Source: Escherichia phage vB_VIPECOMC06
Sequence record: PQ416618.1
Strand: one strand, 5' to 3'
DNA: 64,000 nt
Part shown: positions 4,905-8,802 of the stretch, in pieces
How positions within the stretch are numbered: position 1 is the stretch's first letter
Layout of the letters: every line of letters begins with the position of its first letter
Program-made: the position numbers and the translations under genes
Notes under the pieces: generated by a model
The model's database searches: none
The model's input: the letters and a program-made list of their open reading frames with translations, nothing else
Told to the model about the DNA's origin: nothing

Positions 4905-5192
4905 ATGATTCATCCATTTGACGTATCAGAATCCAAAATTGCTAATCTTCGTGGTCATCATAAGTGTAAATCAGTTTATTGTGCTAAATTGGTAAAACAT
5001 CCTGGTGATGCACACTACGGCTGGTTAGAATGCGACGAAGTTGTTATTGAAATTCCGCCTGTAGATGCAGAATATCTTGAAGAAGGTGACCGCATTTATT
5101 TTGGCGAACTACACATTAGAGGTATCTATGGTAAAGACGAACTTGGGACTGTTGAGACTGAAGAATCTTCCGACATTTATCCTGTCGAATGA
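4905..5192 (+). CDS. hypothetical protein (overlaps the denB start in another frame)
   Basis: 95-aa ORF with AGGGG Shine-Dalgarno 6 nt upstream; follows the rIIB terminator. Confidence 0.45.
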   Translation: MIHPFDVSESKIANLRGHHKCKSVYCAKLVKHPGDAHYGWLECDEVVIEIPPVDAEYLEEGDRIYFGELHIRGIYGKDELGTVETEESSDIYPVE

Positions 5193-5685
5193 GTTTTTGA
5201 CTAGTGAAATGAAGGTGAAGATTGCTGACACTGCTCGGTATTCCCTGAGCCAAAATCCTGGCCAAAACAAAGAAGATGTAGTTCGACGTTGTAAGGTTGC
5301 GGTCTTTGCAGAGTATGTAGTAGCAAATTGGCTAGACGGGTATGTTAATAAAGGTATTGAAGACGTAGAAGACCCGTACACGTATGCATGGGACGTGTTA
5401 GCCCATCCCAAGTATTGTGGAATTCGTGTAGAAGTCAAGACGCACCAGATAGATTCTAAATGGATTTCGGTTACCACAGGATACAGTGGTGATTATCCGG
5501 GTGGTAATGGAATCAATATAGGGCCCTTCTTGAACCATCGAGTCGCAGATTGCATTATTATATTAGATGTCAAAGAAACCTCACCTGACGTCTTCTCTTA
5601 TTCTATAAAGTTCGTGGGAGACCATGAAGACCTAAAGAAAATCGTCCGCAAGAGCAACTACAACGGGTGGTATCTTCAACTTTAA
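5128..5685 (+). CDS. denB: endonuclease IV (dC-specific ssDNA endonuclease), DenB-like
   Basis: ATG at 5128 with AGAGG SD gives 185 aa (T4 DenB length from memory) and places a Ser at residue 176, the residue reported as critical in T4 EndoIV; position downstream of rIIB fits. Confidence 0.5.
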   Translation: MVKTNLGLLRLKNLPTFILSNEFLTSEMKVKIADTARYSLSQNPGQNKEDVVRRCKVAVFAEYVVANWLDGYVNKGIEDVEDPYTYAWDVLAHPKYCGIRVEVKTHQIDSKWISVTTGYSGDYPGGNGINIGPFLNHRVADCIIILDVKETSPDVFSYSIKFVGDHEDLKKIVRKSNYNGWYLQL

Positions 5686-5696
5686 TTTCATAAAGT

Positions 5697-5730
5697 GTTT
5701 ACAACTAAGTAGGACTATGATATAGTAGTC
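5697..5730 (+). promoter_or_regulatory. T4-type early promoter with palindrome around -10
   Basis: GTTTACaactaagTAGGACTAtgaTATAGTAGTCCTAtc. Confidence 0.6.
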
Positions 5731-5752
5731 CTATCTAAAAGAGGATAACATC

Positions 5753-6016
5753 ATGAAATTTAAATTTTTCTACGCAAAACATAAAGTAACAGGCGAATTT
5801 GTTTCAATGTACAACACTGCAGATGACGAAGGGATGATTTATACCCATTTGGGACTATCTCATTGGGACTCGGACGTGCCTTATATGTCATCTGAAGCCG
5901 AAATAACTCGTCTGGTTAATGGACATATGAACGACCATTTTGGTGTTATTCTTTCTAAAGACCTTAAAGAGGTTATCAACAAAGGATATATGGAACTCGC
6001 GGAAGTTGAGATATGA
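5753..6016 (+). CDS. hypothetical early protein
   Basis: 87-aa ORF preceded by an early promoter and AGAGGA SD. Confidence 0.55.
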   Translation: MKFKFFYAKHKVTGEFVSMYNTADDEGMIYTHLGLSHWDSDVPYMSSEAEITRLVNGHMNDHFGVILSKDLKEVINKGYMELAEVEI

Positions 6017-6205
6017 GCTCTAAAACGTGGATCGGAATATGGCTGCTTAGTATCCCTATGATTTGTATAATATTTTCAATTGCATTGAGGTACTTATGAA
6101 AAATGCACTTATTGTACTAAGAACAATTTGCGATACAGGTTTTTACATCGCATGTTCGTTCACTGGAACATGGTTGGCTTTAACATATTTTAATGTAATT
6201 TAATT

Positions 6206-6243
6206 GTTTACAACAAGGTAGGATTATGGTATAGTAGTCCTAC
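6206..6243 (+). promoter_or_regulatory. T4-type early promoter with palindrome around -10
   Basis: GTTTACaacaagGTAGGAttatggTATAGTAGTCCTAC. Confidence 0.6.
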
Positions 6244-6263
6244 TGGAACATGAGGAACACAAA

Positions 6264-6464
6264 ATGGCTAAGCTTTTTAAAGATGTTGAAATTGGTGAAA
6301 AATTTGTTCTGAATAATGGTCAGCAGCTTATTCGTGTAGCTTCTATCGCCGGACAAACTCATAACTGTATCGCCCCAACGTGTTGGACTCGATTCTTTAT
6401 TGAAGATGACACTGAATGTTTAACTGTTGAAGAGCTTTTTGAACGTTCTGATATAGCCGAATAA
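6264..6464 (+). CDS. hypothetical early protein
   Basis: 66-aa ORF preceded by an early promoter and GAGGAA SD. Confidence 0.55.
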   Translation: MAKLFKDVEIGEKFVLNNGQQLIRVASIAGQTHNCIAPTCWTRFFIEDDTECLTVEELFERSDIAE

Positions 6465-6466
6465 AA

Positions 6467-6503
6467 TTGTACAAACTCTCGAGAGCAGAGTATAATGCTC
6501 TCA
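6467..6503 (+). promoter_or_regulatory. early promoter upstream of ndd (variant -35) with palindrome flanking TATAAT
   Basis: TTGTACaaactctcGAGAGCAgagTATAATGCTCTC. Confidence 0.55.
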
Positions 6504-6540
6504 TGGATTACAAAAACATTAATCAATTGAGGAAATTAGC

Positions 6541-6987
6541 ATGTCCAAATATTTAACTCGTAAAGACCTTCTGGCAGTTGGCGGTGAAGTTGTTGCAGTA
6601 GTTCGTAATGGCGAATACGGTTCTGAAGTTTCTAAAGAGTTTCGTTCTCGTGAAGGTTTTTACTTCTTTGTTAAAGGTTCATCTGATTGGCGTCAAGTAG
6701 CAGCACGATTCTTTGTAGGACGTCAACGTTCTAAACAAGGGTTGGATGCAATTCTTTCTCACATTCGTCAAGGCCGTTCGCAACTAGCCCGTACTATGGG
6801 CACTAACAATATTGAATATGATGTAATCTTTGTTGCAGCTAAGAACATGAAACCCCTGACTACTGGTTACGGTAAAGGACAATTGGCTCTGGCATTCACT
6901 CGCAATCATACATCAGAATATCAAACACTCACTGAAATGAACCGTCTTCTGGCAGATAATTTCAAATTCATTCTGCAGAGTTACTAA
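6541..6987 (+). CDS. ndd: nucleoid disruption protein Ndd
   Basis: 148 aa; FYVGNQRSKQG...LSHIRQ.RSQLART...[39 protein letters not shown] block matches T4 Ndd. Confidence 0.9.
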
Positions 6988-6994
6988 TTTATAC

Positions 6995-7026
6995 AGGCCT
7001 ATTAAGCTAGGCCTTTAATTTATTTT
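6995..7026 (+). terminator. putative terminator after ndd
   Basis: AGGCCT-attaagct-AGGCCT stem-loop followed by a T-rich run. Confidence 0.5.
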
Positions 7027-7039
7027 TGAGGTAATTAAA

Positions 7040-7189
7040 ATGGTAGCATGGATTATTGCATTGCTGTGTTGGTCGTTTTTATTCGTTAACACTTTAGTTA
7101 CAGGCGAAACAACAGTATTTCAACAGGCTGTGTCACAAGGTACCTTAGCGGTCTTAGCTCTTCTTAACGTATTAAAAGGCGAGCAATGA
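7040..7189 (+). CDS. small hydrophobic membrane peptide (49 aa)
   Basis: MVAWIIALLCWSFLFVNTLVTGETTVFQQAVSQGTLAVLALLNVLKGEQ; GAGGTAA SD upstream; below the 60-aa cutoff of the ORF track. Confidence 0.5.
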   Translation: MVAWIIALLCWSFLFVNTLVTGETTVFQQAVSQGTLAVLALLNVLKGEQ

Positions 7190-7326
7190 TTAAGAAAATC
7201 TTAGCAGGAGCCTTCGGGCTCTTGTTGTTGCTTACTGTTCTGTACTACGGTGTGATGTTTGGGCTAATCCAAGTAGTGCTTTTCATTTCGGATGTTATAA
7301 TGGTTATTCGTTCATTAGTATGGTGA
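7186..7326 (+). CDS. small hydrophobic membrane peptide (46 aa)
   Basis: MIKKILAGAFGLLLLLTVLYYGVMFGLIQVVLFISDVIMVIRSLVW; ATGA start/stop overlap with the previous peptide. Confidence 0.45.
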   Translation: MIKKILAGAFGLLLLLTVLYYGVMFGLIQVVLFISDVIMVIRSLVW

Positions 7327-7330
7327 AAAT

Positions 7331-8656
7331 ATGCAATTGAATTCTCGTAATCTAAAAAGTATTATTGATAACGAAGCCTTAGCATATGCGATGTACACCG
7401 TTGAAAACCGTGCAATCCCAAACATGATTGATGGATTTAAGCCGGTTCAACGTTTTGTGGTTCATCGTGCGTTAGATTTGGCTCGTGGTAATAAAGAAAA
7501 ATTTCATAAACTTGCGTCAATTGCAGGCGGTGTTGCAGATTTAGGTTATCATCATGGCGAATCTTCTGCACAAGATGCAGGTGCATTGATGGCTAACACA
7601 TGGAACAACAACTATCCACTGTTAGATGGCCAAGGCAACTTTGGTTCTCGAACAGTCCAAAAAGCTGCAGCATCTCGTTATATTTTTGCTCGTGTAAGTA
7701 AAAATTTCTATAACGTATATAAAGATACTGAATATGCTCCAGCTCATGAAGATAAAGAACACATTCCACCAAAATTCTATCTTCCTATTATTCCGACAGT
7801 TCTTTTGAATGGTGTCTCTGGTATTGCAACCGGTTACGCAACAAATATTCTGCCTCATAGTTTTAAAACAGTCAAAAAGGCTGTATTACAAGCTCTTCAA
7901 GGTAAAAATGTCACTAAGCCAAAAGTTGAATTCCCGGAATTCCGTGGTGAAGTACATGAAGTTGATGGGCGTTATGAGATTCACGGAACATATAAGTTCA
8001 CATCTCGCACTCAAATGCAGATAACTGAAATCCCATATAAATTCGACCGTGAAACGTATGTGAGTAAGGTTCTTGACCCGTTGGAAGACAAAGGTCTAAT
8101 CTCATGGGAAGATGATTGCGGTGAACACGGCTTTGGGTTTAAGGTGAAGTTCCGTAAAGAGTACTCGCTTCCTGATGATGAAGAGCTACGTCATGAAAAA
8201 ATCATGAAAGATTTTAGTCTCATCGAACGTCGTTCACAAAACATCACAGTGATTAATGAAAAGGGTAAATTAGCGGTCTATGATAACGTAGTGGACTTAA
8301 TCAAAGATTTTGTTGAAGTCCGTAAGACTTACGTTCAAAAACGTATTGACAACAAAATCCTTGAATCTGAAAAAGCATTTAAACTGGCTTTTGCTAAGGC
8401 ACACTTCATCAAAAAAGTTATTACAGGTGAAATTGTGATTCAGGGCAAGACTCGTAAAGCTTTGACTGAAGAGCTAGCACAAATCGAAATGTACAAAGAA
8501 CATGTCGATAAACTGGTAGGCCTTAACATCTTCCATATCACTTCCGACGAAGCACGTAAACTGGCAGAAGAAGCTAAAGCTAAGAAAGAAGAAAATGAGT
8601 ATTGGAAGTCTACCGATGTTGTGACAGAGTACACTAAAGACTTGGAGGCACTTTGA
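7331..8656 (+). CDS. 52: DNA topoisomerase II medium subunit (GyrA-like)
   Basis: 441 aa; MQLN.R.LKSIIDNEALAYAMYTVENRAIPNMIDGFKPVQRF... matches T4 gp52. Confidence 0.95.
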   Translation: MQLNSRNLKSIIDNEALAYAMYTVENRAIPNMIDGFKPVQRFVVHRALDLARGNKEKFHKLASIAGGVADLGYHHGESSAQDAGALMANTWNNNYPLLDGQGNFGSRTVQKAAASRYIFARVSKNFYNVYKDTEYAPAHEDKEHIPPKFYLPIIPTVLLNGVSGIATGYATNILPHSFKTVKKAVLQALQGKNVTKPKVEFPEFRGEVHEVDGRYEIHGTYKFTSRTQMQITEIPYKFDRETYVSKVLDPLEDKGLISWEDDCGEHGFGFKVKFRKEYSLPDDEELRHEKIMKDFSLIERRSQNITVINEKGKLAVYDNVVDLIKDFVEVRKTYVQKRIDNKILESEKAFKLAFAKAHFIKKVITGEIVIQGKTRKALTEELAQIEMYKEHVDKLVGLNIFHITSDEARKLAEEAKAKKEENEYWKSTDVVTEYTKDLEAL

Positions 8657-8732
8657 GTGCCCTAGCCTTAGGATTTCTCGGTGCAATAGCTGCACTAGTG
8701 ATTTGGCTGTATCGGTTGGACAAACATGATTA

Positions 8733-8752
8733 GGGAGCTTCGGCTCCCTTTT
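8733..8752 (+). terminator. intrinsic terminator after gene 52
   Basis: GGGAGCTTCGGCTCCC hairpin followed by TTTT. Confidence 0.8.
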
Positions 8753-8773
8753 GTGCATTTTTCTCACAAAACA

Positions 8774-8802
8774 GTTTACATGTGCTTCAAACATGATATT
8801 AT
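8774..8802 (+). promoter_or_regulatory. T4-type early promoter upstream of motA
   Basis: GTTTAC + 17 nt + TATTAT. Confidence 0.6.

Follow-up and report, generated by a model that had tools for sequence, protein, structure and literature searches.

Small early proteins between denB and gene 52

In phage T4, the block between denB and gene 52 carries several very small genes, and the transcripts of 52.1, ac and ndd.2-ndd.6 belong to the early class (PMC9697503 supplementary table). This block is dispensable, as the T4 sa-delta-9 deletion, which runs from 52.1 to denB, is viable and loses the stimulation of phospholipid and phosphatidylglycerol synthesis (PMC6071114), and a deletion from gp52.1 to rIIB is viable as well (PMC9712115). 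At least one gene in the block controls the switch in host phospholipid synthesis that the phage induces. In the T4 omics table, the column taken as proteome class is blank for the T4 counterparts of the peptides discussed below (PMC9697503), and a literature search found no detection of these T4 peptides by Ribo-seq or proteomics. Missing proteome entries are common among tiny hydrophobic proteins.

Of the four peptides considered here, only Ac has a phenotype in T4, in that infected cells or cells expressing it accumulate acridines. T4 lacking ac is resistant to acriflavine, as is T4 with a G38R change in Ac, and expression of Ac sensitises E. coli to acriflavine (by 3 log) and to ampicillin (10.1101/2025.06.30.662393). 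From indirect phenotypes, the AcrAB-TolC efflux pump was proposed as the Ac target in that preprint (10.1101/2025.06.30.662393), a proposal repeated elsewhere (PMC13250531), while an older model from the work of Silver in the 1960s invoked increased uptake (as cited in 10.1101/2025.06.30.662393).

A Mosigvirus version of the block

The DNA analysed here, referred to as the window, is a 64,000-nucleotide stretch of Escherichia phage vB_VIPECOMC06 (PQ416618.1). It is 98-99% identical to Mosigvirus genomes (megablast), and its source is a Mosigvirus, an RB69/HX01/ST0-like T-even phage. Four small hydrophobic ORFs lie on its + strand within the denB-to-gene 52 early block, and all four are already CDSs in the annotation of HX01 (RefSeq) and of further relatives. 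By sequence comparison, the ORFs of 28, 49 and 46 aa are orthologs of T4 ndd.6, ac and 52.1, respectively, and the 35-aa ORF is specific to the genus. The four ORFs are very probably genuine Mosigvirus early genes that encode very small proteins of the cytoplasmic membrane within a dispensable block.

All four genes were already known, being either named in T4 (ndd.6, ac, 52.1) or catalogued (phrog_18561), which the preliminary description did not notice, so their value as a discovery is limited; they are a reminder that conserved tiny membrane proteins of T-even phages still lack mechanisms. Homologs were found in 272 phage records for ac, 715 for 52.1, 735 for the ndd.6-like ORF (E <= 1) and 152 for the 35-aa ORF. 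Against T4, pS/pN values are 0.63/0.29 for ndd.6, 0.63/0.45 for ac and 0.76/0.17 for 52.1, a pattern that indicates purifying selection at the protein level, across genera, on these three orthologs. The preliminary description, which had been made from the letters of the window, proposed conservation in related phages as a check, and the frames are indeed kept and annotated as CDSs in RefSeq relatives. At the level of sequence, this conservation is the decisive evidence that the four ORFs are genes.

Reading frames, translational coupling and promoters

Three of the four frames, 6096-6203 (35 aa), 7040-7189 (49 aa) and 7186-7326 (46 aa), were found to be intact + strand ORFs as first described, and the remaining one, which had been given as 6013-6096 and 27 aa, extends over 6013-6099 with the stop codon counted, giving a product of 28 aa. 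Translational coupling through ATGA had been claimed for the last two ORFs only; it is present there, and in fact each of the four takes part in such an overlap (87-aa/28-aa, 28-aa/35-aa and 49-aa/46-aa ORFs, the 87-aa ORF being the upstream neighbor described below), with gp52 starting 4 nt past the stop of the 46-aa ORF. Likewise, the Shine-Dalgarno sequences reported before the last two ORFs (GAGG at 7040, AAGG/GAG at 7186) have counterparts before the other two, namely an SD-like GAGG 5' of 6096 and a weaker GGAAG/GAG 5' of 6013.

The four peptides are hydrophobic, with GRAVY values of 1.44 (28 aa), 0.99 (35 aa), 1.11 (49 aa) and 1.86 (46 aa), but the wording 'almost purely' hydrophobic does not suit the 35-aa peptide, which has R9 and D13 inside its segment. 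Their description as single helices holds for the 46-aa peptide and fails for the 49-aa peptide, in which AlphaFold2 models two helices. When the window was filtered for ATG-initiated ORFs of 25-55 aa with GRAVY >= 0.95, the overall density was 0.19 per kb per strand, and the + strand of 5600-7400 held 5 such ORFs versus 0.27 +/- 0.5 in shuffles. Inspection of upstream sequence and position indicated that the ORFs passing this filter elsewhere in the window are not gene-like.

The unit formed by the 87-aa, 28-aa and 35-aa ORFs is headed by a strong early-type promoter cassette on the + strand (5693..5733; TTTACA-17-TGnTATAGT, hexamers within 5698-5726) that matches at 10/12 positions and has the TG element. 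A second copy of this cassette (6202-6242) lies 5' of ndd.1, the two forming a 41-nt direct repeat that is 88% identical. No sigma-70-type promoter for ac was found in the interval between ndd and ac, where a terminator-like hairpin is found instead, so transcription of ac presumably continues from the ndd promoter (6468-6496).

The ndd.6 and ndd.5 positions

The first gene of the unit is the 87-aa ORF (5753..6016, + strand), a member of the RB69ORF270c family (phrog_2390) whose TGA overlaps the ATG of the 28-aa ORF. The same 4-nt overlap with an ndd.6-like ORF occurs in VR26 and IME08. Coupling of an 87-aa ORF to ndd.6 is shared by this phage with Gaprivervirus and Dhakavirus, whereas T4 lacks the 87-aa ORF. 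An IMG/VR search anchored on this ORF returned only 3 near-identical loci, which added no diversity.

The 28-aa ORF (6013..6099, + strand) encodes a single-pass hydrophobic peptide that is 50% identical to T4 Ndd.6 over 28/28 aa (E 3.5e-10, blastp against 13 T4 block proteins) and matches phrog_8851 (1.2e-10). T4 Ndd.6 is also 28 aa long, and in both phages its gene is the first small ORF past denB and has an ATGA overlap with the next small ORF. The motif MSSKxW...W..SIPxIC..FS is kept in five genera. The label 'outer membrane protein' that databases attach to Ndd.6 is an old prediction, and was set aside as implausible for a single helix of 28 aa.

The next ORF (6096..6203, + strand) encodes a moderately hydrophobic peptide of 35 aa that matches phrog_18561 (5.9e-27) and occupies the position of T4 ndd.5. 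T4 Ndd.5 (32 aa, phrog_5011) resembles it in lying right after ndd.6, in its ATGA coupling, and in its size and hydrophobic character. Homology to ndd.5 was looked for and not detected: blastp gave no match between the 35-aa peptide and the T4 ndd.x proteins, a local alignment with Ndd.5 scored 23 where shuffles averaged 19 +/- 4 (p = 0.16), and the two proteins fall in different families (phrog_18561 versus phrog_5011). On these comparisons, the 35-aa ORF and T4 Ndd.5 are analogues by position alone.

The restriction of this family to Mosigvirus-type records, which holds for all 152 without exception, and its lack of likeness to T4 ndd.x proteins raise the question of whether the 35-aa ORF is a gene. 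It could be an open frame that arose by chance in AT-rich DNA and has stayed intact only through the 95-99% identity among Mosigvirus genomes and through other DNA signals, such as a hairpin at 6151-6172 or the approach to the ndd.1 promoter (6202-6242). An inverted repeat does lie inside the ORF, its product, with R9 and D13 within the segment, has the lowest hydrophobicity of the set, and hydrophobic out-of-frame ORFs arise by chance elsewhere in this DNA, one example being 6608-6700 inside ndd. Non-synonymous variable sites (8) outnumber synonymous ones (6), and the frame is shifted in 2/152 relatives (F2, PECP20). We nevertheless regard a chance frame as quite unlikely. The frame is open in about 150/152 relatives at amino acid identities down to 89%, and both frameshifts fall in homopolymer runs, which are typical spots for sequencing errors. 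The window copy differs from the usual 36-aa form by an in-frame deletion of exactly 3 nt. Variable sites are distributed 5/1/8 over the codon positions, so that 8/14 are at position 3, although this third-position excess is weak. In addition, the ORF has a well-spaced GAGG and an ATGA overlap with ndd.6 in the arrangement of T4 ndd.6/ndd.5, and it is both a PHROG family and a RefSeq annotation.

The ac gene and the missing stp

The preliminary description placed the small ORFs where T4 encodes proteins of the ac/stp type. This is broadly correct for ac (the 49-aa ORF), for 52.1 (the 46-aa ORF) and, with respect to the ndd.6/ndd.5 slot, for the first pair, but it does not extend to stp. T4 Stp is a small early peptide of 26 aa that is encoded between ndd and ac and activates the host PrrC anticodon nuclease; it is hydrophilic and cytoplasmic, and so is not a membrane peptide. 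In the window, the gap between ndd and ac is 52 nt and holds no 26-aa Stp-like ORF, and tblastn with T4 Stp against all 64 kb returned only noise (best E 0.1, away from this gap). The place that stp takes 5' of ac in T4 is occupied by a terminator-like hairpin (6995..7014, + strand; AGGCCT...AGGCCT with a T-rich tail); in the annotation of phage G2285 its counterpart is called a terminator. Homologs of stp, ndd.2, ndd.2a, ndd.3, ndd.4, ndd.5 and motA.1 were found nowhere in the window.

The 49-aa ORF (7040..7189, + strand) encodes a membrane peptide orthologous by similarity to T4 Ac, the determinant of acridine sensitivity. Over 38 aa, blastp aligns it with T4 Ac at 34% identity (E 2.5e-7), and phrog_2501 is matched by both the window peptide (2.9e-22) and T4 Ac (2.2e-25). 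As in T4, the gene lies downstream of ndd and upstream of gene 52, with its stop overlapping the 52.1 start. A single-sequence AlphaFold2 model has helices at 2-21 and 25-46 with a break at TGE (pLDDT 78.5). T4 Ac (51 aa) is similar in size, is also predicted to form two helices, and shares the motif S/T-V-x-x-Q-A-x-x-Q-G, in which G34 of the window peptide (in SQG) aligns with G38 of T4 Ac. The two differ at the C-terminus, where the window peptide ends in KGEQ and meets 52.1 at an ATGA junction, whereas T4 Ac ends in LSND and overlaps it by 8 nt. No structural relative of Ac or 52.1 was found in the PDB.

With its two predicted helices and this polar loop/helix motif, Ac would most likely lower drug efflux, AcrAB-TolC being the proposed target. 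In such a role, it may be a functional analogue of small proteins that modulate pumps, for which AcrZ is an example; this E. coli inner-membrane protein of 49 aa binds AcrB and tunes efflux, and it resembles Ac in size and location. Should the model of the preprint be right, both small proteins would have AcrB as their point of action. There are also differences: AcrZ, a single helix, helps to export some drugs, and Ac, for which two helices are predicted, would inhibit such export. An approximate AcrZ query gave only noise by tblastn against the window (E >= 0.9).

A somewhat unlikely alternative is that Ac would raise acridine influx by changing membrane permeability or energisation, as a small pore-forming or depolarising peptide does, and would not bind a pump. 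Type I toxins resemble small hydrophobic two-helix peptides in composition, which counts for such an activity, as does the lack of AcrZ similarity in Ac. Uptake was moreover how the effect was classically read (Silver 1964-67, summarised in 10.1101/2025.06.30.662393), and the ampicillin sensitivity of Ac-expressing cells fits a general envelope defect (10.1101/2025.06.30.662393). However, E. coli exports acriflavine chiefly through AcrAB-TolC, so that loss of efflux would suffice, and the conserved polar motif and the loss of function caused by a single G-to-R change point to a specific interaction, not to generic insertion. The two models overlap, since proton-driven efflux would fail as well under a depolarising peptide. 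If lowered efflux is correct and Ac inhibits AcrAB-TolC, the protein would have practical relevance to phage-antibiotic synergy.

The 52.1 gene and promoter P52

The 46-aa ORF (7186..7326, + strand) encodes the most hydrophobic of the four peptides and is the ortholog, by similarity, of T4 52.1 (DUF7396, phrog_3595). It is 74% identical to T4 gp52.1 (E 6e-22, blastp), matches Pfam DUF7396 over residues 1-46/46 with 78.7 bits (cut-off 27), and is modelled by AlphaFold2 as one helix of 44 residues (pLDDT 96). In both phages the protein has 46 aa, its gene lies directly 5' of gene 52, and the middle promoter P52 is contained in its 3' end; the N-terminal third differs between the window and T4 (AGAFGLLLLLTV versus GYSLALAALLVA).

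P52 (7274..7301, + strand) consists of a MotA box, tagTGCTTtt (7274-7283), a 12-bp spacer, TGn (7293-7295) and the -10 element TATAAT (7296-7301). The spacer fits the rule of 12 +/- 1 that accompanies the MotA-promoter consensus (PMC2988021), and transcription is predicted to start about 23 nt before the gp52 ATG. In T4, the P52 start maps to 165227, inside 52.1 (Table 1, PMC2988021).

Conservation of 52.1 is partly due to this embedded promoter, and it could be argued that P52 and the gp52 translation start account for it without a functional 52.1 protein. The MotA box, TGn and -10 element are conserved to the nucleotide, third codon positions included, in five genera, pS falls to about 0.4 over codons 30-39, and T4, in which P52 likewise starts within 52.1, tolerates deletion of the gene. 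Such an explanation is very unlikely. Codons 1-29, outside the promoter, still have pS of 0.74-0.97 versus pN of 0.23-0.32 (0.93 and 0.23, respectively, against T4), and the segment LYYGVMFGLIQ is kept while synonymous sites vary freely. Tequatro-, Mosig-, Dhaka- and Gaprivervirus and Klebsiella phage Roth20 all preserve the frame, its length of 46 aa and the terminal W, and Gelderlandvirus STML-198 has a weaker 44-aa homolog in the same place (30% identity, E 0.013).

Linkage to gene 52

Gene 52 (7331..8656, + strand), which encodes the medium subunit of topoisomerase II, is the downstream anchor of the ac-52.1-52 unit. The linkage of these genes is tight and translationally coupled in six genera, and mutations in T4 genes 39 and 60 also lead to acridine resistance (Miller 2003, as cited in 10.1101/2025.06.30.662393). 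These observations would be expected if ac and 52.1 acted on the phage topoisomerase II, for example as a membrane tether, with acridine sensitivity arising by topoisomerase poisoning. We consider this scarcely credible, as Ac by itself sensitises uninfected E. coli to acriflavine (10.1101/2025.06.30.662393). Other genera carry an unrelated peptide family in the ac slot, and in Morganella MP1, Aeromonas phiAS4 and Vibrio VH1 gene 52 is found without 52.1 or ac upstream of it. Topoisomerase mutants have a DNA-delay phenotype, whereas deletion of the block is viable, which also counts against a role with the topoisomerase. An obligate linkage of 52.1 to gene 52 is ruled out by MP1, phiAS4 and VH1, and 52.1 and ac are accessory genes because they are not beside gene 52 in these more distant T4-like phages.

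Possible roles in the host membrane

It is proposed that the four peptides would be made by coupled translation in the first minutes of infection, would insert into the host inner membrane, and may there alter membrane properties or host membrane complexes. Acridine sensitivity could then be a side effect of another, natural role of Ac. The peptides of 28, 35 and 46 aa are candidates for the stimulation of phosphatidylglycerol synthesis that was mapped to this block in T4. The remark in the preliminary description that such peptides often target host membrane transporters or proteases, or modulate defence systems, is a generic one; a transporter target has been proposed for Ac (10.1101/2025.06.30.662393), whereas the present analysis gave no link between the other three and proteases or defence systems. 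Neither the question of Ac and the pump nor that of phospholipid synthesis is advanced by the present window.

The content of the slots differs among phages. In some genera the peptide encoded in the ac slot belongs to phrog_2501, and Gaprivervirus, Dhakavirus and one recombinant Mosigvirus have the unrelated phrog_9347 there; in the ndd.5 slot, T4 has phrog_5011 and the present phage the Mosigvirus-only phrog_18561. Both replacements fit a more speculative and rather improbable proposal, that the small-peptide slots near ndd and gene 52 are exchangeable cassettes of host-specific membrane effectors. If so, each peptide would put a different complex of the host inner membrane out of action (an efflux pump, a transporter or a defence sensor bound to the membrane, for example), and among these effectors the 35-aa Mosigvirus peptide would be an uncharacterised one.

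The place of T4 motA.1 is taken in the window by a fifth small hydrophobic ORF, unrelated to motA.1. This ORF of 26 aa (8653..8733, + strand) begins with a TTG over the gp52 stop, is preceded by a GGAGG Shine-Dalgarno sequence and is annotated in HX01 as gp206.

The ndd-52 early gene block

Three of the four short hydrophobic ORFs in this region are named T4 orthologs (ndd.6, ac and 52.1), and the fourth is a catalogued Mosigvirus ORFan, so all of them were already known. They lie on the plus strand of a densely packed block of early genes (window 5600-8800), in which denB (ending at 5685) is followed by an 87-aa ORF (5753-6016), the 28-aa ndd.6 ortholog (6013-6099, stop included; GRAVY 1.44), a 35-aa ORF (6096-6203; GRAVY 0.99), ndd.1 (6264-6464), ndd (6541-6987), the 49-aa ac (7040-7189; GRAVY 1.11), the 46-aa 52.1 (7186-7326; GRAVY 1.86) and gene 52, which encodes the topoisomerase II medium subunit (7331-8656). 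The open frames, their hydrophobicity and three of the four sets of coordinates agree with the preliminary description, which had given the first peptide 27 aa instead of 28. The translational coupling it noted for the last pair was also found, as ATGA overlaps join the 87-aa/28-aa, 28-aa/35-aa and 49-aa/46-aa ORFs, and an SD-like sequence precedes each of the four.

Taken over the whole window, small ORFs with an ATG start, 25-55 aa and a GRAVY of at least 0.95 have a density of 0.19 per kb per strand, and the 1.8-kb stretch around the four ORFs contains 5 on the plus strand, versus 0.27 +/- 0.5 in shuffled sequence. Inspection of upstream sequence and position found none elsewhere in the window to be gene-like. 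At the edge of the block, denB has more than one candidate start: its longest frame, from 5065, encodes 206 aa, as in the HX01 RefSeq annotation, and the records of RB69 and most relatives give DenB 158 aa and place a distinct 95-aa ORF ahead of it (window 4905-5192), with which the longer version would overlap.

By megablast, the region is 98-99% identical to Mosigvirus genomes such as ST0, HX01, JS09 and RB69. All four ORFs are CDSs in the HX01 RefSeq record (gp199, 28 aa, 'outer membrane protein'; gp200, 35 aa, hypothetical; gp203, 49 aa, 'Ac acridine resistance protein'; gp204, 46 aa, hypothetical) and likewise in other records; of the four, the RB69 record annotates only ac and 52.1.

Relationship to T4 and coding constraint

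The T4 record has the gene order denB, ndd.6, ndd.5, ndd.4, ndd.3, ndd.2a, ndd.2, ndd.1, ndd, stp, ac, 52.1, 52. Compared with T4 proteins, the entire 28-aa peptide aligns with Ndd.6 (50% identity, E 3.5e-10; phrog_8851), the 49-aa peptide matches Ac (34%, E 2.5e-7; phrog_2501, which also holds T4 Ac) and the 46-aa peptide matches gp52.1 (74%, E 6e-22; phrog_3595); Pfam recognizes only the last of the four, as DUF7396 (78.7 bits, cut-off 27). The 35-aa peptide (phrog_18561) had no match among the T4 proteins compared and belongs to a different family from T4 Ndd.5 (phrog_5011). Kinship of this peptide, or its 36-aa form, with a T4 ndd.x product was rejected, as shuffle-calibrated alignments gave no signal (ndd.5, p = 0.16). 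The preliminary description had correctly likened the ORFs by position to T4 small proteins and was generic on their function, but its inclusion of stp was mistaken: counterparts of T4 stp, ndd.2 to ndd.5 and motA.1 are absent from the whole 64-kb window.

Conservation in related phages was confirmed by tblastn against 50,697 phage records, which found ac in 272 (Mosigvirus, Tequatrovirus, and Klebsiella and Salmonella T-even relatives), 52.1 in 715, an ndd.6-like peptide in 735 (at E <= 1) and the 35-aa peptide in 152, all Mosigvirus-type. Aligned loci from six genera keep the motifs MSSKxW...W..SIPxIC..FS (ndd.6), TGE(T/S)(T/S)V..QA..QGTL (Ac) and LYYGVMFGLIQVVLFISDVIM...SLxW (52.1). These three genes are under purifying selection at the protein level, as pS exceeds pN against T4 (Nei-Gojobori counts: ndd.6, 0.63/0.29; ac, 0.63/0.45; 52.1, 0.76/0.17).

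Gene status is weakest for the 35-aa ORF, for which the coding test was confined to a single genus. Among ten relatives its 14 variable sites fall 5/1/8 by codon position (6 synonymous, 8 non-synonymous), and, relative to the common 36-aa form, the copy in the window has lost exactly 3 nt; both observations argue for coding. Against coding, the 36-aa frame is disrupted in 2 of 152 relatives by a single-base indel within a homopolymer run: phage F2 (A6 in place of A5, about position 1798 of locus L011) and phage PECP20 (one base fewer in GGGTTTTT, about position 400 of locus L026); these are either sequencing errors or true inactivation. On balance, the ORF is very probably a gene.

Transcription units and the embedded P52 promoter

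Early-type promoters (TTTACA/TGTACA, a 17-nt spacer and TATAGT/TATAAT, most with TG) precede the 87-aa ORF (5698-5726), ndd.1 (6207-6235) and ndd (6468-6496), and their positions therefore define three units: 87 aa/ndd.6/35 aa; ndd.1; and ndd, a terminator-like hairpin (6995-7014), then ac-52.1-52. The first two promoters are copies of a 41-nt cassette (5693-5733 and 6202-6242, 88% identity). Both copies carry a palindrome, TAGGACTA...TAGTCCTA, across the -10 region; on the minus strand it also scores as terminator-like in the scan. The hairpin is the sole content of the 52-nt ndd-ac spacer (window 6987-7040); no stp is found there, and the phage is therefore missing the T4 peptide activator of the host PrrC anticodon nuclease.

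A P52 middle promoter (7274-7301) lies inside the 3' end of 52.1, with a MotA box, tagTGCTTtt (7274-7283), a 12-bp spacer and TGtTATAAT (7293-7301), matching the MotA-promoter consensus and its 12 +/- 1 spacing rule (PMC2988021). Its inferred start lies about 23 nt upstream of the gp52 ATG, and the T4 P52 start, 165227, has the same 23-nt distance to gene 52 (Table 1, PMC2988021). Because this element is identical to the nucleotide in five genera, third codon positions included, and pS in 52.1, about 0.9 over codons 1-29, is only about 0.4 over codons 30-39, part of the striking conservation of 52.1 reflects DNA-level constraint; the embedded promoter puts the gene under coding and regulatory constraint at once. 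Protein constraint persists, since codons 1-29 have a pS of 0.93 versus a pN of 0.23.

Predicted structure and function

Single-sequence AlphaFold2 models predict two helices for Ac (2-21 and 25-46, with a break at T-G-E; pLDDT 78.5), consistent with an ESMFold prediction for T4 Ac (10.1101/2025.06.30.662393), and a single 44-residue helix for 52.1 (pLDDT 96), which is longer than one membrane crossing and may form a hairpin at YYG in the membrane. No relative of Ac or 52.1 was found among solved structures. The 28-aa peptide has one hydrophobic core of roughly 20 residues, K4 to R26; the 'outer membrane protein' label carried by HX01, other records and phrog_8851 is an inherited T4 prediction, implausible for a single-helix peptide of 28 residues.

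According to a 2025 preprint, T4 without ac plates on acriflavine and wild type does not; in E. coli, expression of Ac alone raises acriflavine sensitivity by about 3 log and also confers sensitivity to ampicillin; and the G38R protein is inactive (10.1101/2025.06.30.662393). This residue is conserved as G34 in the window Ac. The same authors propose that Ac blocks AcrAB-TolC from the inner membrane, the older model being increased dye uptake (10.1101/2025.06.30.662393); the efflux assumption is repeated in a 2026 PNAS paper (PMC13250531). The T4 sa-delta-9 deletion extends over 52.1, ac, stp, ndd, ndd.1 to ndd.6 and denB. Phage carrying it are viable with about half the burst and no longer stimulate phospholipid synthesis, phosphatidylglycerol in particular (Kutter et al., PMC6071114); a gp52.1-rIIB deletion is viable too (PMC9712115). 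In T4 dual RNA-seq, 52.1, ac, stp and ndd.2 to ndd.6 are of the early class, and their presumed proteome-class entry is empty (PMC9697503 supplementary table). By analogy with T4, the window peptides are most likely made early and located in the inner membrane, where they would alter functions of the host membrane, Ac by reducing drug efflux.

Exchange of small genes around gene 52

Ac (phrog_2501) occupies the slot just before 52.1 in Tequatrovirus, Mosigvirus, Klebsiella phage Roth20 and Gelderlandvirus; in Gaprivervirus VR26 (locus L013, 2840-3004), Dhakavirus IME08 (locus L014, 2996-3157) and Mosigvirus RPN187 (locus L005, 2599-2908) the occupant is an unrelated two-segment peptide of 53-54 aa (phrog_9347). 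RPN187 combines this Dhakavirus-type cassette with a Dhakavirus-type 52.1, and evidently gained the cassette by exchange between genera. Other hydrophobic ORFs precede gene 52 in Abraxas (Acinetobacter), TG1 (Yersinia) and Makalu (Krischvirus), and none was found upstream of it in Morganella MP1, Aeromonas phiAS4 or Vibrio VH1. Because the contents of the slot differ or are missing among phages, the small peptides are accessory, exchangeable genes, and a role as obligate topoisomerase partners was rejected.

A fifth small hydrophobic ORF (window 8653-8733; 26 aa, LSALALGFLGAIAALVIWLYRLDKHD), equivalent to HX01 gp206, has a GGAGG SD and a TTG start that overlaps the gp52 stop. In T4 this slot is filled by motA.1, which is unrelated to it, and VR26 has at this place an ORF of 29 aa with an ATG start.
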